DNA of 64,000 nucleotides from an uncultured actinomycete (lineage in GTDB: Bacteria > Actinomycetota > Acidimicrobiia > Spongiisociales > UBA5794). The position numbers were made by a program, and so were the translations under genes. This document shows, one piece after another, positions 1 through 20,592 of this stretch. The stretch spans positions 32,072 to 96,071 of the forward strand of contig CALOAN010000044.1 in assembly GCA_942491345.1 (NCBI GenBank). Direction: 5' to 3'. The number at the start of each line of letters is the position of its first letter. Position 1 is the stretch's first letter. The notes beneath the pieces are model-generated. The model was not told where the DNA came from and did no database searches. It saw only the letters and a list, made by a program, of their open reading frames with translations.

Positions 1-771
1 ATGGCCGATCGCCTCGTTGTCATGAGCCGGACGGCGGCAGAACGGCTCATCCTGCGCTACGGCATCGACGCGGAACGCATCGATGTGATCCCTCACGGAG
101 TCGACACGCGCTTTGCCGGCCCTTCCCTGGTCAATGGTGACCGACCCCTCGTCCTCACGTGGGGATTGATCGGCCCGGGCAAAGGTTTGGAGTCCGTGGT
201 CGAAGCGTTCGCCGGTTTGCTGGATCTGGATCCGCGTCCGCGCTATCTGATTGCGGGGGCCACTCATCCAAATGTGCGTGCGGACTCGGGCGAGGCCTAT
301 CGAGAGAGCCTCATCTCTTTGGTCGACCGCTTCGGAGTCGAAGGCCTGGTCGAATTCGACGACCGCTACCTCGATCGAGCATCCCTTGCCCGCTTGGTAC
401 GCAGCGCCGACCTCGTGGTCCTTCCCTACTCATCGGTCGAACAGGTGACCTCGGGCGTTCTGGTGGAAGCAATCGCAGCCTCCAAGCCGGTGATCGCCAC
501 CCAGTTTCCCCATGCCGTGGAGCTGCTCTCCGGAGGAGCCGGCATCACCGTTCCTCACGGCGACTCCGGGGCGTTGAGCGCTGCGCTCCGACGCCTCTTG
601 ACGGATCAACGTCTGACATCCCGAATGGGCCGGGAAGCTCGCCGGATTGCCGACGGATGGTATTGGCCCGCGATTGGCCGACGATTCGGGTCGATGATGT
701 CGGGCCTCGAACAAACCGACCACGTCGGCCACCAGCAAGCGTCGTTGGAGGTGGCCCGTGTCGCCGGATGA
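1..771 (+). CDS. Glycosyltransferase family 4 (GT-B), C-terminal part; 5' end lies outside the window
   Basis: ORF is open to the window edge. It carries GT-B C-terminal half motifs (PLVLTWGLIGPGKGLESVVEAF; ADLVVLPYSSVEQVTSGVLVEAIAASKPVIAT) and strong GC3 bias. Confidence 0.8.
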   Translation: MADRLVVMSRTAAERLILRYGIDAERIDVIPHGVDTRFAGPSLVNGDRPLVLTWGLIGPGKGLESVVEAFAGLLDLDPRPRYLIAGATHPNVRADSGEAYRESLISLVDRFGVEGLVEFDDRYLDRASLARLVRSADLVVLPYSSVEQVTSGVLVEAIAASKPVIATQFPHAVELLSGGAGITVPHGDSGALSAALRRLLTDQRLTSRMGREARRIADGWYWPAIGRRFGSMMSGLEQTDHVGHQQASLEVARVAG

Positions 772-1852
772 ACGTGGCGAGGCCGCCGCTCATCCGTCTG
801 GCTCCACGTACCGGTCCGCACGGTCGGAGCTGCCGCGCCCGGAATACACTCATCTGCGCCGGCTCACCAACACGACCGGGCTCTGGGAACACGCACATAT
901 CCTGACCCCCCGCGTTGAGCATGGGTTCTGCACCGACGACAATGCGCGTGGCCTTCTCGTCGTGTCGCGAGTGGCGCCACCGTCGACCGAACAGTCGGAC
1001 CTCGCCGCGATATACCTCAGTTTTGTGCTCGATGCCCGCACCGACACAGGCCAGTTTCACAATCGTCGCGACGCCGACGGAAGCTGGATCGACGAAGTCG
1101 GCAGCGACGACAGCCAAGGTCGAGCGTGGTGGGGCCTCGGGACCGTCGCACGATCGGGTCCGGTGCCATGGATGCGGGAGGCGGCCTCCGACGCCTTCGC
1201 CTCCTGCAGCTCCTTTGAGTCCCCGCACTTGCGTGCCAACGCATACGCTGCCCTCGGTGCCGCCGAGATGCTCGCCGCCGATCCCGGCAGCGCCGTCGCA
1301 GGCGAGCTCCTCGAGCGAACCGCTGGGAAGATCGCCGCCGCCGCCAGCGACAGAATCCCCTGGCCGGAAGCTCGCCTCACCTACGACAACGCTCGTCTAC
1401 CCGAAGCCCTGTTGGTGGCGGGCGCCGCTCGCGGTGACCGCCACCTGATCTCGGTCGGCATCCGTCTCCTGGAATGGCTCGTTCGAGCCGAAACCAACCA
1501 CGACCACTTCAGCTTCACCCCGGTCGGCGGATGGGCGCCGGGCGGCCCGCGCCCTGCGTTCGACCAGCAGCCCATCGACGCTGCGGCGATGGCCGAGGCT
1601 TGCTACCGGGCGTGGACCATTACCCACAAGACCGTATGGCGGGAACGAGCCCTGGACGCCGCACGATGGTTCGTGGGACAAAACGACACCGGCATGGTGC
1701 TCTACGACTCCGAAACCGGCGGCACCTGTGACGGCCTGATGCAACACTCGGTCAACGAGAACCGGGGAGCCGAGTCAACGCTCGCGGGAATCGCCGCACT
1801 CCAAGTTGCTGCGCTGTGCTCCATCGGTGACCTCGGGACAGCAGCCTATTGA
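758..1852 (+). CDS. Conserved hypothetical protein embedded in the GT4/GH130 glycan cluster
   Basis: GTG start at 758 overlaps the upstream gene by 14 nt. Its TGA (1850-1852) overlaps the next ATG (TGATG). Codon bias is coherent. I cannot name any motif. Confidence 0.65.
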   Translation: MSPDERGEAAAHPSGSTYRSARSELPRPEYTHLRRLTNTTGLWEHAHILTPRVEHGFCTDDNARGLLVVSRVAPPSTEQSDLAAIYLSFVLDARTDTGQFHNRRDADGSWIDEVGSDDSQGRAWWGLGTVARSGPVPWMREAASDAFASCSSFESPHLRANAYAALGAAEMLAADPGSAVAGELLERTAGKIAAAASDRIPWPEARLTYDNARLPEALLVAGAARGDRHLISVGIRLLEWLVRAETNHDHFSFTPVGGWAPGGPRPAFDQQPIDAAAMAEACYRAWTITHKTVWRERALDAARWFVGQNDTGMVLYDSETGGTCDGLMQHSVNENRGAESTLAGIAALQVAALCSIGDLGTAAY

Positions 1853-10702: not shown

Positions 10703-10781
10703 GCGCCTTTGATAGCCCTGAGCGTCTTCCTACCGGACCACTTCCTCGGTGTACTTTGCCGGGAATCAGAGATCCGCCGCC

Positions 10782-11693
10782 ATGGTTCACTCACGTGTGA
10801 CCGAACGAATCGCCTTTGTGCTTGGTGCCGGCGGAGCCTATGGCTGGGTATTCCACGCCGGCGTTCTCCACGGGGTCGAACGCGCCCTGAAGGCCCCGCC
10901 GAATGATGCGGACCTGATCATCGGGACGTCGGCCGGTTCCGCGATCGGTGCCGCGATACGAGCCGGAATCGGAACGCGCGACCTCGCCGAGGTGGTCTCA
11001 CGCCCGCCGAGCGAAGAAGACCGGAAGCGGATGAGGAACGAGCTCCGTGACGCCCGCAAGACATTGATCCCGTTTGCACCGCGCCTCGTGCAGCATGCCC
11101 TCAGCCAAGACCGAACCGGCATGCTGGGTGTTGCCGGCCTTCTTCCACCGGGTATCTTCCCAACCGCGTGGCTCGCTCGCTTCCCCGGCATGGAGCACCA
11201 TGCCCAGTGGCCTGAGGGGCTGTGGATACCAGCGGTCTCGGCCACTACCGGCGACGTCGTTGTGTTCGGCCGCGACCGACGCGATATTGATGTGCATCGT
11301 GCGGCACAGGCCTCGTCAGCGGTCCCCGGCATGTTCCAGCCACACGTAATCGATGGGACGGCCTACTTCGATGGAGGCGTGGTGTCCCCAACACACGCCG
11401 ATCTTGCTGCCGAGATCGATCCCGATCTCGTGATCATCTCTTCCCCGATGACCCGCCCTGGACGGCGGCTCACCTCCGGTCATGCACGAAAGCGCCTAGC
11501 CGAGGAAGTCGCCGCTCTCGAGACGGGAAACGCTCGCGTCGTCACCATCGAGCCGGATGCCGAGACCGGTCGGCTCGCCGATGGCTTCCCACGGTCGAGC
11601 GGTTCGAATGCGTCACGCATCTTCGAATCGGCGGCGTCCCTCGCCGAGCAATCGGTTGGTGCATCTCGAGAACCTCAACCCGTCGGCTCCTAG
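10782..11693 (+). CDS. Patatin-like phospholipase
   Basis: Oxyanion loop (GAGGAYGWVFHAGVL), nucleophile elbow (GTSAGS), and catalytic DGG (YFDGGV). Confidence 0.8.
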   Translation: MVHSRVTERIAFVLGAGGAYGWVFHAGVLHGVERALKAPPNDADLIIGTSAGSAIGAAIRAGIGTRDLAEVVSRPPSEEDRKRMRNELRDARKTLIPFAPRLVQHALSQDRTGMLGVAGLLPPGIFPTAWLARFPGMEHHAQWPEGLWIPAVSATTGDVVVFGRDRRDIDVHRAAQASSAVPGMFQPHVIDGTAYFDGGVVSPTHADLAAEIDPDLVIISSPMTRPGRRLTSGHARKRLAEEVAALETGNARVVTIEPDAETGRLADGFPRSSGSNASRIFESAASLAEQSVGASREPQPVGS

Positions 11694-15387: not shown

Positions 15388-16044
15388 ATGCCGACACCAG
15401 GACAAGAACTTGCCAGCATCGACTTTGAATCGATGATCGGCGGGCCGCTGATTGCGGTCATCCACGCCCAGGCCCAGGCCGCTATGTCGACCGTCAACTT
15501 CATCAAGGAGGTCGGCTTCAAGGCCCCGACCACCGAGCAGGAAGCAGGCGGAGATACCGAGACCAACGACCCGATCTACGTCACCTTCACCTATCCAAAG
15601 GAGCTCAGCCCATTCGTACCAGCCGTTGCAGCCGACCCGAGCGCGACCCCGCCCGTCGTGGCGTCGCCGGCCGTTCCAGCGGTCTTCGAGGATCAGAACC
15701 TGAAGGTACCGATCCTCACGATGCTGCCGATCCCATTCATCCGCATCGACGAAACCACAGTCGACTTCAACGCGAAGATCAACTCGGTCGAGTATCGCAA
15801 GACGGTGACCAACCTCAAGATCAACGCATCGACTGAGGCGAAGGCCGGCTGGTTCTTCGGTTCCGCGAAGCTCAAGGTGTCGACGGCATATCAGCGCACT
15901 TCAACGCAGGGCAACTCCGTGAACCGCACGTATTCGCTTGCGGTCCACGTGAAGGCAGTCCAGGACGAGATGCCCGCCGGGATGGAGAAGATCCTCGGAA
16001 TCCTCGAGGATGCCATCACGTCGACACCAGCTGAGGCCGCCTAA
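15388..16044 (+). CDS. Gene A of the unknown four-gene cluster: DUF2589-like protein (218 aa)
   Basis: GGGGAGGA site before the ATG. N-terminal helix is IGGPLIAVIHAQAQAAMSTVNFIKEVGF. A Pro-flanked beta segment reads LKVPILTMLPIPFIRIDETTVDFNAKI. C-terminus is YSLAVHVKAVQDEMPAGMEKILGILEDAI. The family name is from memory. Confidence 0.75.
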   Translation: MPTPGQELASIDFESMIGGPLIAVIHAQAQAAMSTVNFIKEVGFKAPTTEQEAGGDTETNDPIYVTFTYPKELSPFVPAVAADPSATPPVVASPAVPAVFEDQNLKVPILTMLPIPFIRIDETTVDFNAKINSVEYRKTVTNLKINASTEAKAGWFFGSAKLKVSTAYQRTSTQGNSVNRTYSLAVHVKAVQDEMPAGMEKILGILEDAITSTPAEAA

Positions 16045-16075
16045 GAACGCGAGCCGCACGGCGTTGGGAGGGACC

Positions 16076-16756
16076 ATGACAAATCTGGGTGACTACTTGG
16101 GACAGTTGATGTCTGAGGTCGTGATTGCACGCGTGCACGCCGACCTCGAGTCGGTCCGGGTGGCTGAGCTCTACGCCAGCCACCCACTCCTGCGTCATAT
16201 GCCCATACCGCGGGTTCGGCTGCCGGAGATCCAGATGGAGGTACCCGTCGTAATCGACGGATCTGGATCTCCGGGACCGACCGAATCTCCTCGAGGTGGA
16301 GCCAGCATCTCAGACGGTCGCAAGCAGTTCGACAAAGTGCTGGCGACCCACCTGCGCAACAGCAAGGTCAGGTTGCGAGCGAACCAGCGAGAAGCTCTAG
16401 TCAAGGCCCTAGACGCCGAAGCTCAACGACCCGACCTCCCGATCGAAATCTCCGTCGACACGAACCGGTTCGCAGACCGGTTCACGAACGTAGCCATCGA
16501 CGTACTCGGCGAGTCGCTGACCGAAGAGAAGATCAACAGCGTCAAGGCCGGCCTCAGGGACGACGCCCGGCTCGCCTTGCTGGCCGCCCGCACGGCGCCA
16601 CCGCGAGTGACGGCACTGGTGGAGACCAGTGCCGTGCGTGAGGCAGGACCCGAGGACAAGATCACGAGGCTCCGGCTGACGATTCGCGAAGAGTCGATGG
16701 AACTCACGACAATCGAATCCGACGGTGAGACGACCGAACGCCTCGTACCGGAGTAG
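16076..16756 (+). CDS. Gene B: second, divergent DUF2589-like protein (226 aa)
   Basis: GGGAGGGA site before ATG 16076. N-terminal helix is LGQLMSEVVIARVHADLESVRVAELY. It is followed by MPIPRVRLPEIQMEVPVVI, the same layout as gene A. Confidence 0.7.
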   Translation: MTNLGDYLGQLMSEVVIARVHADLESVRVAELYASHPLLRHMPIPRVRLPEIQMEVPVVIDGSGSPGPTESPRGGASISDGRKQFDKVLATHLRNSKVRLRANQREALVKALDAEAQRPDLPIEISVDTNRFADRFTNVAIDVLGESLTEEKINSVKAGLRDDARLALLAARTAPPRVTALVETSAVREAGPEDKITRLRLTIREESMELTTIESDGETTERLVPE

Positions 16757-16762
16757 GACGAC

Positions 16763-17344
16763 ATGCTTCGCATCGTCAACCTCGAGGAGTTCCATCGGCT
16801 CCTGCTCCGCGTGCCGGCGCTTGTCGACGAGCTCGAAGAACGCACGGCCGACGCACCCGGAGCGGTGCGCAGCTGGCTCATCGAAGTCGAGGGTGCCCTC
16901 GAGAACAACCGGATGCCGCTAGCGGGGAACATAGCCGGCCTTCGCGCGCGCCTCGACTCCGCCTCAAGGGGCGCGGTACCCGGCGGCGTCGTTCTCACCG
17001 GCTCGGTCACAAAGCGAAAGGTCCGCTACGCCGTCGCTGCCGAGGTGCTGAAGAATGCCGCTGACACCATCGCTGCGGAGCTCGAGGCTGACGGAGCGCG
17101 TATCGATGAAGCCGACCTCCTCGCCCGCCAGCTTGTCGTCGCTGCGCAGGTGAAGGGCCTGGTGAACGGGCCGCCGTCTCGGGCGGACCATGCCGATACG
17201 ATTCAGGCGCTCTGGACGGCGGTTCTCTCCGAACCCGAGATCGGGCCGGGAGCCGTTCACCTGCTCAGTTTGGTGGGGCCCAACGATGCTGTCATCGTTC
17301 TCGACCGTGCCGTCACCCGGGACGTTTGGTCGGGTCGTTCGTGA
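16763..17344 (+). CDS. Gene C: all-helical 193-aa protein, no recognisable motif
   Basis: ATG lies 6 nt after the gene B stop. The sequence is Leu/Ala/Glu/Arg-rich with helical periodicity and has coherent GC3. Confidence 0.62.
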   Translation: MLRIVNLEEFHRLLLRVPALVDELEERTADAPGAVRSWLIEVEGALENNRMPLAGNIAGLRARLDSASRGAVPGGVVLTGSVTKRKVRYAVAAEVLKNAADTIAAELEADGARIDEADLLARQLVVAAQVKGLVNGPPSRADHADTIQALWTAVLSEPEIGPGAVHLLSLVGPNDAVIVLDRAVTRDVWSGRS

Positions 17345-17475: not shown

Positions 17476-20400
17476 GTGACCACGTTCAACGACCCAGACT
17501 TCCAGGCGCAGGACTACGGCGAGACGATGCCCGAGTTCGCCGACGCCGGCATCGTCCGCATTCCCGCAGGCGTCGTCGAGCTTCGGGTGCACGGCGTTGC
17601 CGGCGGCACGCCGGAGCAGAACCTGGGCGACCCGCATCCAATCAAGATCAGCGGCGACAACCAGGCAGGCGTCTACCGACGACGATCGAAGCTGAACTCG
17701 GGGCCGCAGCGTACGGTTGAGGCATACAACTGGTCGTCCATGAATTCCGGGCGCACCGCACGTGCATTCTGGCTCGTGTTGTTTCCGTTCGCGGCCGTGA
17801 ACTTCGCTGGTTGGCTCCTGCCGGCCGACATGAGAGAACCTCGACCAATCGGGAGCACGGACTCCGAGCGGAAGACACCGTGGGAGAAGGTGAAGAGCTC
17901 CCCTGTGAACCCGTGGAACAATCGCATGGTTGCCCAGATGTGTGTGCGCGGGATGGCACTCGCGATCACGGCGATTGTCATGCTCGGAATCGCAACGATC
18001 AGCGTCGACATCGTCGGGCTCCAGTGCGGAGCGGAGAACGCCTGCTCACAGCCGTGGTGGTTCGCGTGGTTTGAACCAATTCGGACCTCGTCGATCCTCG
18101 ACGGACAGCCGACCCGCTTCGCCATTGTCGGTACGCTCGTCCCGGTCGCGGCTCTTGGAGGACTCTGGCTTCTCAGCCGACAATCGTCCACCTACGACCA
18201 ATACGGGGTCAGGTCAAGAAACGAGGCTTCCGGACCTTCGGAACGCTCGAAGGGGCCGGTCGGTAGGCACGTCGATACGATCCGGCTCGACACGGTCGAC
18301 TTCTGGCAGTCGCCCGACGCTGCCTACATCCAAGGATGGCTCCACACATCGGTGGCCTTGGGAACCCTCGCCGTCATGCTGGCAGCTTCGATGCGAGTCC
18401 TTGCACCGAACTCGCCCCACCATGGAACGTTCCTCTTTCTGGCAATCGCAGCGGCTGGTTTGCTCGTGGTGCTCGTGGTGTTCGTGGGCATGGTCAGCTT
18501 CATGTCGCAGATTCCGCGATCCTGGCTTCGTAGATCGGATTCTCCGAGATGGCGTCCACGACAAACCTGGATTCCGTCCCTCGTGGCTGGTTTCCTGCTG
18601 AGCTGGGTTGCCCTGCTCGGCTGGGGCGCCAAGGGGACGCTGGACACTGGATCACCCGTACTCGAACCGATCCGCAACGGCCTCATCGTCGCAACACTGC
18701 TGGGAGGTTCCCTGATATTCGCATTGGCGATGCTCGTCGGCGCATGGCGAGTGATGACGACCATCATCGCTGTGGGGCTCATGTGGTACTTCGTACTCGC
18801 GCCGCAGAATGGAGTCGTAGGCGAACCGCCGTTCGTTGTTGATGTCGGAGGAGCCTGGGCCTGGATCGTCGCTGAGGTGTTGGCCGCCGCTGTGTTCCTT
18901 GCGATCGTCTGGTGGCGGTCCAACGCGCAGAACCCCTTGTGGTGGCGATCGACGCCATCGCGGGTCGACGAAGCACACCGTCACGGCTTGTTGTGGATCG
19001 TCGGATCGGCCGGCGTACTCGCGGGGATCGGGATGGGGGCGGATGCCCGCAATGACGGGAACCCATTGATCGTCTTCGCCGTCGCCACGTCCGTTGTGCT
19101 GGTGTTTCTGCTGGTGTCGTTCTCGATGCGCTTGTCGATCGGACGAGCACAGCGTCGGCTCGACGCTCCCGAACCCGGGACCATGCGGTCAGGCACGACG
19201 TTCGTCATGGCGGCAGTCGCGATGTGTTCCATCCTTGCCATGGTGGCGAGCACGACGGTGTGGATCTCCAAGGCGCTCGGGGATGCCGTTGCTCACTCCG
19301 GTGTGACCCAGGTCGGCGCAGGCCAGATCGAATACCCGGCTGAAGCCGGGTGGTTCGCGCTCGCTGCGTTCGTCGGTTTCGTGGTCCTGTTCGGGATAAT
19401 CGCCATCCGGATCGGCACCCTGCGTTGGTTCCGATGGAGGAACGACGTCGCCAAAGGCATCTGCGAGGAATACGACGTGGTACCGCCGCCCGCTCTCAGC
19501 GACGAGCCGCCGAGGTGTGAGCCGCTTCGCGATCCCGCCACCCAGGACGTGGGCGACCACTACGGCTGGAGGCTGAAGTACGCAAAGCGGATCCGCACGC
19601 GGCGCCTGTGGGCCAACCTCATCGACGAGATCGACTGGATGATCACATCCGCGGTGATGGCGACCCTGGCCGCCCTTGGCGCCAGTGTTGTTGCACGGAT
19701 GCGAGACGAACAACCCGGAGGACACGTCGACGATGCGGTTGCCATCGCCACGTGGGTGCTGACCTTCCTCGCGATCGCTGTGTTCTTCCTGGTCAGGTCC
19801 GCACGCGACGACCGCCAGCTGCGGGGAACCGTGGGCATCCTGTGGGAGGTCATGGGGTTCTTCCCGCGGCGGTTCCACCCGTTGGCTCCGCCGTGCTACT
19901 CGGAGCGAACCGTGATCGAACTGAGGAACCGGGTCATCGAGTACACGAAAGCCGACGACGACGGCGGGAAGATCATCCTCGCCCACAGCCAGGGAACAAT
20001 GCTGACAACCGCAGCCCTGCTCAGCCTCAACGGGCCGCCACCGACGATCCCGGCACCGAAACAGGCGGTGCCGAAAGGATCGGAGCTCGACCATCTGGCG
20101 TTTGTGACCTACGGATGCATGCTTGAGCGGCTGTTCGGGCGCGCATGGCCCGACCAGCTGCAGAAGCAGTATCTGGTCAACCTCAAGGCACGAATCGAGC
20201 ATGGTCCGAACGGCCCGAAAGAGTGGGCGATGTCGGACACGCCACTGGCGTACCCAACGCCGAACGGACCAACAAGGTGGATGAACTTTGGCCGCTACAC
20301 GGACTATCTCGGTGGCCGTGTCTTTGCGCCGCTCCAGCCGAAGCCAACGCCAAACTCGAGATTCGGCGAGTGGGATGTCGACGTGCGGCCCCGGGACGAC

Positions 20401-20592
20401 ATCATGTTCCAGGATCCGACCCGCCGTTGGCGTTTCCTCGGCGAAACGACCGCCGCTCGTGCCTGGCTCCACTCGTTCAACTACGAGTCGGACGCTGAAG
20501 ACTCACGCTTTCGGTCACACGTGTGGGAGTGGGCACGAAGGTTCGCCCAGGAATCGGCAGACTCCGCCGACGAATCCCCTCATTCTGACTGA
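17476..20592 (+). CDS. Gene D: 1038-aa polytopic membrane protein with serine-hydrolase (alpha/beta-hydrolase/lipase-like) motifs
   Basis: GTG start is preceded by GGGAGGG. N-terminus has VELRVHGVAGG (HG at nt 17590-17595). About 15 hydrophobic helices follow. The C-terminal soluble domain has KIILAHSQGTMLTTAALL (Ser codon at 19987-19989). Confidence 0.8.
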   Translation: MTTFNDPDFQAQDYGETMPEFADAGIVRIPAGVVELRVHGVAGGTPEQNLGDPHPIKISGDNQAGVYRRRSKLNSGPQRTVEAYNWSSMNSGRTARAFWLVLFPFAAVNFAGWLLPADMREPRPIGSTDSERKTPWEKVKSSPVNPWNNRMVAQMCVRGMALAITAIVMLGIATISVDIVGLQCGAENACSQPWWFAWFEPIRTSSILDGQPTRFAIVGTLVPVAALGGLWLLSRQSSTYDQYGVRSRNEASGPSERSKGPVGRHVDTIRLDTVDFWQSPDAAYIQGWLHTSVALGTLAVMLAASMRVLAPNSPHHGTFLFLAIAAAGLLVVLVVFVGMVSFMSQIPRSWLRRSDSPRWRPRQTWIPSLVAGFLLSWVALLGWGAKGTLDTGSPVLEPIRNGLIVATLLGGSLIFALAMLVGAWRVMTTIIAVGLMWYFVLAPQNGVVGEPPFVVDVGGAWAWIVAEVLAAAVFLAIVWWRSNAQNPLWWRSTPSRVDEAHRHGLLWIVGSAGVLAGIGMGADARNDGNPLIVFAVATSVVLVFLLVSFSMRLSIGRAQRRLDAPEPGTMRSGTTFVMAAVAMCSILAMVASTTVWISKALGDAVAHSGVTQVGAGQIEYPAEAGWFALAAFVGFVVLFGIIAIRIGTLRWFRWRNDVAKGICEEYDVVPPPALSDEPPRCEPLRDPATQDVGDHYGWRLKYAKRIRTRRLWANLIDEIDWMITSAVMATLAALGASVVARMRDEQPGGHVDDAVAIATWVLTFLAIAVFFLVRSARDDRQLRGTVGILWEVMGFFPRRFHPLAPPCYSERTVIELRNRVIEYTKADDDGGKIILAHSQGTMLTTAALLSLNGPPPTIPAPKQAVPKGSELDHLAFVTYGCMLERLFGRAWPDQLQKQYLVNLKARIEHGPNGPKEWAMSDTPLAYPTPNGPTRWMNFGRYTDYLGGRVFAPLQPKPTPNSRFGEWDVDVRPRDDIMFQDPTRRWRFLGETTAARAWLHSFNYESDAEDSRFRSHVWEWARRFAQESADSADESPHSD

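Follow-up and report, generated by a model that had tools for sequence, protein, structure and literature searches.

A predicted α/β hydrolase split by a polytopic membrane domain in a large unannotated protein family of Actinomycetota

The subject of this report is a single gene in a stretch of 64,000 nucleotides from an uncultured actinomycete (contig CALOAN010000044.1 of assembly GCA_942491345.1; this whole stretch, with a G+C content of 63.8%, is referred to as the window). It encodes a membrane protein of 1038 residues, with the two parts of a predicted α/β-hydrolase domain placed towards its ends (Table 1). We put at roughly 70% the probability that this protein is one catalytically competent Ser–Asp–His hydrolase of the lipase/esterase type, with a fold to which, according to the structural models, two widely separated parts of the chain would contribute. 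The lid site of the enzyme would then hold a polytopic membrane domain, and the halves of its catalytic core would lie about 700 residues apart in sequence. Few enzyme folds have been studied as thoroughly as that of the α/β hydrolases, in which an inserted lid usually amounts to some tens of residues; to our knowledge, no other α/β hydrolase carries a whole polytopic membrane domain at the lid position. Three computed results carry this reading: the motifs are conserved, the two pieces co-vary, and modelling predicts the fold. The protein is most likely an active, cytoplasm-facing lipid esterase or acyltransferase that is capped by its own membrane domain.

The open reading frame (ORF) is complete, and in the homologue alignment its close relatives keep the N-terminal MTT... 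start. Residues 33–46 (VVELRVHGVAGGTP) contain strand 3 and the HG oxyanion motif, with H39-G40 at nucleotides 17590–17595, and residues 832–843 (KIILAHSQGTML) contain the pentapeptide A-H-S-Q-G, with S838 at nucleotides 19987–19989. The translation bears out the original prediction, made from the sequence of the window, on the positions of the ORF and of both motifs. About 15 transmembrane helices (TMH) had also been predicted between the motifs, and a Kyte–Doolittle scan (about 15 hydrophobic segments, within residues 97–773) and the helix count of a full-length AlphaFold2 model agree with that number. The same prediction spoke of about 800 residues of TMH, which holds for the spacing of the motifs, as the HG motif and the nucleophile serine are 799 residues apart, but not for the membrane region itself, which covers about 680 residues.

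Conservation, co-variation and predicted fold

Conservation was assessed in 216 family sequences aligned to a family hidden Markov model, with values taken from 212 representatives that mostly share no more than 50% identity with one another. Among these relatives, the conservation of H39 is 0.98, of G40 0.99, of S838, the nucleophile named in the original prediction, 0.99, of G840 1.0, of D943 1.0 and of H999 0.99, and W86 is 100% conserved. All six of the motif and triad residues are present in 204 of the 216 sequences; of the remaining 12, eight are truncated or fail in part to align at the six sites, and four are complete with one substitution each (Ser to Gly in P0055 and P0175, His39 to Leu in P0182 and His999 to Asn in P0213). 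The order of N-terminal piece, membrane domain and C-terminal piece is kept in every complete homologue examined and, as judged from these alignments, the HG and Ser motifs are not chance matches. It could still be argued that transport or scaffolding is the main role of the protein, and that the hydrolase-like domain is a non-catalytic pseudoenzyme with a ligand-binding or regulatory role. The loss of the nucleophile or of the histidine in P0055, P0175 and P0213 would agree with this, as would the large membrane domain with its own conserved polar residues (R158, T165, D178 and H290). Against it, substitutions are confined to the four complete sequences named above and conservation of a full triad together with the oxyanion motif is typical of active enzymes, and we give this explanation very little credence.

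Mean conservation is 0.57 in the N-terminal piece, 0.43 in the C-terminal piece and 0.32 in the membrane domain. The most conserved stretches are those that flank the insertion, residues 96–116 (0.70, the highest of any region) and 776–808 (0.69). In the first of these, which is hydrophobic segment 1, W99 (0.97), P104 (1.0), F105 (0.96) and N109 (0.99) stand out, and in the second, the junction, W790, P797, R798, H801, P802 and Y808 are invariant in the 212 relatives. Within the membrane domain, the conserved residues also include Q183, C184, C190 and W277. Two histidines outside the triad, H290 (nucleotides 18343–18345), at the cytoplasmic start of a TMH, and H801 (nucleotides 19876–19878), in the PRxxHPLAPPxY loop of the junction, are 100% conserved.

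Co-variation was analysed by mean-field direct-coupling analysis of residues 28–118 and 776–1015 in 212 sequences (effective number of sequences, Neff, 181), with four control runs in which the rows of the N-terminal piece were permuted among the sequences. Half of the ten strongest couplings join the two pieces (A106-M793, E82-R819, F110-V792, S59-E990 and V66-E791). Pairs that join them with a score above 1.0 number 36, against 1–2 after permutation, and five of them exceed 1.5, against none after permutation, so that couplings between the pieces are as strong as those inside the C-terminal domain. The E82-R819 pair is compensatory, being E/R in 203 sequences and otherwise exchanged jointly for V/Y (three times), I/Y, A/F, Q/Y and Q/H, and A106-M793 shows swapping of size (M/G, T/A and A/M). 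The couplings of E82, in strand 4, to R819 and of V34, in strand 3, to Y823 fit a helix B that crosses over strands 3 and 4. The oxyanion loop is coupled to the His loop through A42-S1000 and to the nucleophile elbow through G43-H837, which suggests that it lies close to both.

Two AlphaFold2 predictions were made. In the full-length model, obtained from an alignment of 18 sequences, the membrane helices reach a predicted local distance difference test score (pLDDT) of mostly 70–90. For the second, a chimera was constructed in which residues 26–96 are joined directly to residues 776–1032, aligned to 60 full-length homologues, whereby the membrane domain becomes an insertion. The chimera was predicted with a pLDDT of 84.9 (83.3–84.9 over five models) and a predicted template modelling (TM) score of 0.87; the N-terminal piece within it scores 85–97 and the artificial junction is weaker, at 64–68. 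The model consists of six core strands alternating with helices, with the serine after strand 5, the aspartate after strand 7 and the histidine after strand 8, which is, in the model, the layout of a minimal α/β hydrolase without strands 1 and 2. The C-terminal piece alone would supply four core strands (5–8) and no strand for the oxyanion loop.

Comparison of the chimera with the PDB by Foldseek gave 858 matches at E≤10, and all of the 50 listed are α/β hydrolases, among them thioesterases, monoacylglycerol lipases, lipases and esterases. Most of these alignments extend over 290–375 columns, which is approximately the full length of the chimera. The best matches are the SulM thioesterase (E 3.7e-3) and the lid-less RavL of Legionella (probability 0.98, TM-score 0.52 normalised to the length of the target). 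The scores are weak, so the protein would be a divergent member of the fold. Its assignment to the α/β-hydrolase superfamily is made on the predicted structure, in which the fold, an elbow of the Sm-x-Nu-x-Sm type after strand 5 and the order nucleophile–acid–histidine are all found. H39-G40 follows directly on the strand of residues 34–38, as expected of an oxyanion position, though in profile comparisons this strand was never matched to one of a known hydrolase.

The original prediction had offered two explanations: either the hydrolase fold harbours an inserted membrane domain, or the N-terminal motif is coincidental and the C-terminal domain alone is catalytic. Conservation, co-occurrence, co-variation and the chimera fold agree on the first of these; the chimera model places both segments in one core and assembles Ser838–Asp943–His999 at the canonical positions. 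None of the three refutations set out in the original prediction was borne out. According to the second explanation, only the C-terminal 250 residues or so would be catalytic, and the VELRVHGV motif would be either coincidental or part of a separate small cytoplasmic domain. The failure of the profiles to align the motif with a known oxyanion strand could be cited for it, as could the full-length model, which shows no confident packing. It does not account for the near-complete conservation of H39-G40 across the family, for couplings such as E82-R819 that match those within the C-terminal domain and are absent from the permuted controls, for the confident folding of the N-terminal piece as part of a single domain, or for a C-terminal piece that is incomplete by itself, and we regard it as very unlikely.

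Membrane domain, topology and proposed mechanism

The membrane domain comprises about 680–690 residues between strand 4 and helix B. In the model, the point of insertion lies at the C-terminal edge of the sheet on the active-site face, which is the usual site of lids and caps, and the membrane domain would therefore be, in effect, a giant cap. No match to the membrane domain was found in the PDB with Foldseek (best E 0.55), and hhalign comparison of its two halves indicated no internal repeat (probability 2%). Couplings within it outline hairpins (L227-A294, A161-G287 and G181-G219). The weak couplings S279-R799 and D241-E791 point to contacts of the junction motif with cytoplasmic loops of this domain, which would dock there. 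A further pair, Cys184 and Cys190 (nucleotides 18025–18045), lies in the first loop predicted to be outside, is 87–89% conserved and co-varies strongly (coupling rank 4), which suggests, from the alignment, a disulfide or a metal site.

The orientation of the hydrolase was considered from the distribution of charge. In the target, loops rich in Lys and Arg (8, 7, 6, 4, 5 and 14 such residues) alternate with loops that are poor in them (2, 0, 2, 0, 1, 1 and 2), and the linker beyond the last helix, VRSARDDRQLR, is strongly positive. Among 182 relatives, the junction loop holds a mean of 2.8 Lys and Arg in 7.9 residues, and the loop after segment 1 is also rich in them. The N-terminus of the target is acidic and has no signal peptide. 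By the positive-inside rule, the Lys- and Arg-rich junction and segment-1 loop would place both the C-terminal domain and the loop after residues 96–116 in the cytoplasm, and the assembled hydrolase most likely faces this compartment. The N- and C-terminal pieces can meet only if the chain crosses the membrane an even number of times, and segment 96–116 would for this reason be membrane-embedded but non-spanning; it probably packs on the amphipathic junction helix, to which it is strongly coupled through the A106-M793 and F110-V792 pairs. There would thus be about 14 true spanning helices in the target and about 10 in most of its relatives, which are shorter. A crude hydropathy count across the relatives peaks at 15 and 11 with segment 1 counted, but carries too much noise to fix the number.

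The same split fold could instead be positioned on the outer face and act on lipids or glycolipids of the envelope, provided that both segment 96–116 and a helix at 784–800 span the membrane. Segment 96–116 is as hydrophobic as a normal TMH, the resulting 16 crossings satisfy the need for an even number, and extracellular action is common among the envelope esterases of actinobacteria. This arrangement would, however, turn the Lys- and Arg-rich loops outwards, against the positive-inside rule, in the target and in the 182 relatives alike. In helix 784–796, only about 12–13 residues separate the flanking arginines, and these include a conserved D/E791, so that the helix is too short and too polar to span; a 96-residue acidic tail would need to be translocated without a signal peptide, and the co-varying Cys184 and Cys190 would become cytoplasmic. 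We consider an outward-facing hydrolase unlikely.

For the cytoplasm-facing enzyme, a mechanism can be proposed from its anatomy, since the comparisons and literature searches yielded no conserved neighbour, no PDB match to the membrane domain and no published description. Residues ~28–92 would provide strand 3 with the HG oxyanion loop and strand 4, and residues ~809–1023 would provide helix B, strand 5 with the S838 elbow and strands 6–8 with D943 and H999, the chain being brought back from the last TMH to this core by the junction helix and the PRxxHPLAPPxY loop (780–808). Segment 96–116 and the junction 780–808 would pack together and may form a portal through which a lipid ester enters from the bilayer. 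Access to the substrate would be from the cytoplasmic leaflet, with the membrane domain serving as both cap and selectivity element, and Ser838 would attack the ester (or thioester) of a membrane lipid to give an acyl-enzyme, to be resolved by water in a hydrolase or by an acceptor in an acyltransferase. We favour an acyl-ester substrate by analogy, from the HSQG elbow and the nearest matches, which are lipases, Tle3, RavL and thioesterases; catalytic activity and a lipid substrate are both inferred. It is also conceivable, though at rather low probability, that the membrane domain, beyond acting as anchor or cap, translocates or selects lipids with a fold new to the PDB and feeds its substrate directly to the nested hydrolase, the whole being a coupled transporter–esterase or transporter–acyltransferase. 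If so, it would represent an unrecognised class of lipid-remodelling enzyme that is widespread in Actinomycetota.

Several points weigh against a split, active and cytoplasm-facing hydrolase. Regarding the fold, the full-length model has a pLDDT below 50 for residues 1–100 and for most of 779–1038 and is uninformative on their packing, so the key test rests on an artificial chimera. The Foldseek matches to this chimera are weak (best E 3.7e-3, TM-scores of 0.2–0.5 and root-mean-square deviations of mostly 9–17 Å), and the placement of the triad and oxyanion motif and the order of the sheet were read from predicted strand positions, not from coordinates. Matches of the Pfam, PDB-sequence and hhalign profiles to known hydrolases are confined to the elbow region and never take in the N-terminal HG strand. 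Regarding co-variation, an Neff of 181 is low, and permutation of rows erases shared phylogeny as well as co-evolution. Regarding topology, hydropathy gives an odd number of segments (15 in the target, with a mode of 11 in the relatives) and, if all of them spanned the membrane, the two hydrolase pieces would be on opposite sides; support for a non-spanning segment 96–116 is modest, consisting of the Lys/Arg bias and of the couplings W113-F276 and W113-P805, which at ~1.1–1.2 are near the permuted maximum. Finally, function is not indicated by gene context, as no conserved neighbour points to a pathway.

Relation to known enzymes

Sequence matches of the family to known enzymes are weak and are only to α/β-hydrolase families (Tle3, Abhydrolase_6, Lipase_3, cutinase and DUF676). 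When 51 chimeras were compared with Pfam, matches were obtained to Tle3 in 19, Abhydrolase_6 in 11, Lipase_3 in 10, DUF676 in five and PGAP1 in two, all below threshold. A profile-sequence search of the PDB ranked RavL (7x2p) and 8boz first.

RavL of Legionella pneumophila, which has the triad Ser125–Asp206–His235 (PMC11696984), is the best PDB match to the chimera by probability, by TM-score and by profile-sequence search. The target resembles RavL and the class 2 lipases of the Bacillus subtilis LipA type in having a small core without strands 1 and 2, an HG motif after strand 3, an Sm-H-S-x-G elbow and the order Ser–Asp–His. These proteins are contiguous, soluble and 180–250 residues long, whereas the target has a membrane domain of ~690 residues between strand 4 and helix B. 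Similarity in sequence to RavL is limited to the elbow (E 0.015), and the same region alone was aligned to LipA by hhalign (probability 15%, using a LipA sequence entered by hand).

The second resemblance is to the Tle3 phospholipase effector domain (PF24322) of type VI secretion systems, for which the structure of Tle3/Tli3 from adherent-invasive Escherichia coli is available (PMC9860674). The elbow of Tle3 is of the S-H-S-Q-G-T type and is preceded by a similar helix B, and PDB entry 8boz aligns over the elbow. The best score against the Pfam model was nevertheless 19.4 bits (E 8e-4, for a relative) against a threshold of 27, covering ~40 of the 321 model positions, and the target itself gave no match. 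Tle3 is, moreover, soluble, secreted as a toxin and paired with an immunity partner, and it lacks both the membrane insertion and the N-terminal piece that characterise the target. The likeness raises the question of whether the family, instead of having a housekeeping role in lipid metabolism, might serve conflict or defence as a phospholipase effector that damages membranes and stays inactive until triggered. In favour of this, Tle3 is the commonest of the weak Pfam matches, the best matches in sequence and fold include 8boz and RavL, an effector of Legionella, the gene neighbourhood is variable, and in one relative, P0055, the module is joined to a trypsin-like peptidase and a STAND NTPase. 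The Tle3 matches, however, all fall below the gathering score and concern only the elbow, the STAND fusion is a single case in which Gly replaces the nucleophile, and PADLOC-DB gave no match at E≤0.1 for the target or for six neighbouring ORFs. The family is also broad in Actinomycetota and has no conserved partner gene, immunity-like or otherwise, and we find this explanation quite improbable.

PGAP1 also combines an α/β-hydrolase domain with many TMH and acts on a membrane lipid, but its hydrolase is contiguous and the helices follow it. The target shares lipase-like HG...GHSxG motifs with PGAP1/Bst1 and the DUF676 serine esterases, and the original prediction had likened its N-terminus to these families. 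At the level of the family this link is not supported by Pfam, where the matches were rare and all below threshold: two of the 51 chimeras for PGAP1 (PF07819; best E 0.075, 13.2 against 24.3 bits), five for DUF676 (PF05057; best E 0.0062) and none for the target in either case.

Other enzymes resemble the proposed architecture in part. In LCAT/LPLA2-type acyltransferases and in lipases with a lid or cap, subdomains that touch the membrane or shield the active site are inserted in loops of the catalytic face, which follows the same principle of an insertion used as cap, but these are small, soluble or peripheral and tens of residues long, whereas the insertion in the present family is an integral membrane domain of 10–14 helices. 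OatA-type fusions unite an acyltransferase-3 membrane domain and an SGNH esterase in one chain for acyl handling at the membrane. Their domains are arranged end to end and the esterase has the SGNH fold, in contrast to the nested α/β hydrolase of the target; no similarity in sequence was detected, the membrane domain of the target having no Pfam match.

Family, distribution and gene neighbourhood

Searches with the whole target gave no match in Pfam-A or NCBIfam even at E≤1, and the sole match among PDB sequences (E 9.7) is meaningless. A first homologue search returned 71 proteins, one of them 100% identical to the target, and none of the 71 has a name beyond 'hypothetical' or 'integral membrane protein'. 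They form a subfamily of ~1000 residues with 40–86% identity to the target and a larger group of ~750–900 residues with 22–28% identity over the full alignment; repeating the word-indexed search with the family alignment gave nearly the same set. A profile built from 56 family proteins was then searched against 1.84 billion representative proteins, yielding 5,396 matches at E≤1e-3 and 2,044 at E≤1e-30, and the best 150 are nearly all full-length matches in a single stretch, in proteins of ~700–1000 residues. With clustering at 50% identity, the family comprises no fewer than 5,396 clusters. By itself, the peptide pattern ELRVHGVxG[TGS] retrieves a relative from at least 544 species genomes, in both Actinomycetes and Acidimicrobiia.

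Of 80 loci retained for comparison, 79 are from Actinomycetota and one is from a metagenome-assembled genome (MAG) labelled Gemmatimonadales. The genera represented include Streptomyces, Micromonospora, Nocardiopsis, Actinoplanes, Nonomuraea and Saccharothrix, along with MAGs of Acidimicrobiia and Mycobacteriales, and the nearest relative in a genome is from an uncultured Actinomycetota MAG (75% protein identity). The target defines a large unannotated family of Actinomycetota and adds a novel architecture to a familiar type of enzyme. We found no description in the literature of a hydrolase fold interrupted by TMH, nor of this family. The domain databases miss it because the hydrolase fold is split; profile searches can overlook enzymes whose folds are broken by very large insertions, and modelling of chimeras from which the insertion is deleted offers a practical route to their detection. 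In this case a widespread and probably lipid-active membrane enzyme was left entirely unannotated, including in genera that produce antibiotics, for example Streptomyces, Micromonospora and Nocardiopsis.

In eight longer relatives, scans with Pfam revealed no informative fused domains. Among unusual members, P0053 (1632 residues, metagenomic) has two complete tandem units of N-terminal piece, membrane domain and C-terminal piece, with N-terminal pieces at residues 5 and 843 and C-terminal pieces at ~533–694 and ~1393–1491. P0055 (Streptomyces sp., 1386 residues) carries its trypsin-like peptidase and STAND NTPase (PF13365, PF24883 and PF13191) upstream of the whole module, with Gly in place of Ser at the nucleophile position, and may be an inactivated copy that has been recruited to a conflict system.

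Table 1. Features of the target gene and of neighbouring ORFs; residues are those of the target protein and positions those of the window
Feature	Residues	Position	Strand	Basis
Target ORF, GTG start, 1038 aa; complete gene for a polytopic membrane protein with predicted split α/β-hydrolase domain		17476..20592	+	ORF list and translation
N-terminal hydrolase piece: strand 3 with HG, β-hairpin, strand 4	28–92	17557..17751	+	conservation, chimera model, couplings
Strand 3 and HG oxyanion motif	33–44	17572–17607	+	chimera model (strand at chimera residues 9–13)
Strand 3, then H39-G40	34–38			chimera model
β-Hairpin	56–68			chimera model
Strand 4, TVEAYNWS	80–87	17713–17736	+	chimera model (strand at chimera residues 55–60)
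Strand 4, modelled extent	80–85			chimera model
Hydrophobic segment 1, RAFWLVLFPFAAVNFAGWLLP	96–116	17761..17823	+	conservation, couplings to junction helix
Polytopic membrane domain, ~14 TMH	150–775	17923..19800	+	hydropathy scan, full-length model, hairpin couplings
Junction element: amphipathic helix RQLRGTVGILWEVMGFF, then family signature PRRFHPLAPPCY	780–808	19813..19899	+	conservation, couplings
Junction helix	780–795			chimera model
C-terminal hydrolase piece: helix B, strand 5, nucleophile elbow, strands 6–8	809–1023	19900..20544	+	chimera model
Helix B	808–826			chimera model
Strand 5, then S838	832–837			chimera model
Nucleophile elbow A-H-S-Q-G	836–840	19981–19995	+	S838/G840 conservation; weak Pfam and PDB sequence matches centre here
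Helix C	839–852			chimera model
Strand 6	874–879			chimera model
Strand 7, then D943	935–940			chimera model
Asp943, proposed catalytic acid	943	20302..20304	+	conservation; three residues past strand 7 in model
Strand 8, then H999	975–978			chimera model
His999, proposed catalytic base	999	20470..20472	+	conservation; loop after strand 8 in model
Patatin-like phospholipase ORF		10749–11693	+	E 4.9e-18
DUF5671 protein, 576 aa		12829–14559	-	
Small upstream ORF, DUF2589		15388–16044	+	E 1.3e-27
Small upstream ORF, no family		16010–16756	+	
Small upstream ORF, no family		16763–17344	+	
α/β hydrolase fused to class III adenylate/guanylate cyclase, 442 aa		22042–23370	+	

Clustering of the ORFs from the 80 loci gave no neighbour family present in more than 12 of them, the larger clusters being the target gene itself and opposite-strand ORFs that overlap it. 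In the window, three small ORFs lie directly upstream of the target on the same strand, an arrangement that is kept in the relative with 75% identity (L001) and not in more distant relatives; a functional link of these ORFs to the target is unproven. The patatin-like phospholipase and DUF5671 genes are located a few kb upstream of the target. The 442-residue protein encoded on the other side of the target unites an α/β hydrolase of its own (Abhydrolase_1/Hydrolase_4, residues 26–256 of that protein) with the cyclase domain (residues 288–438).

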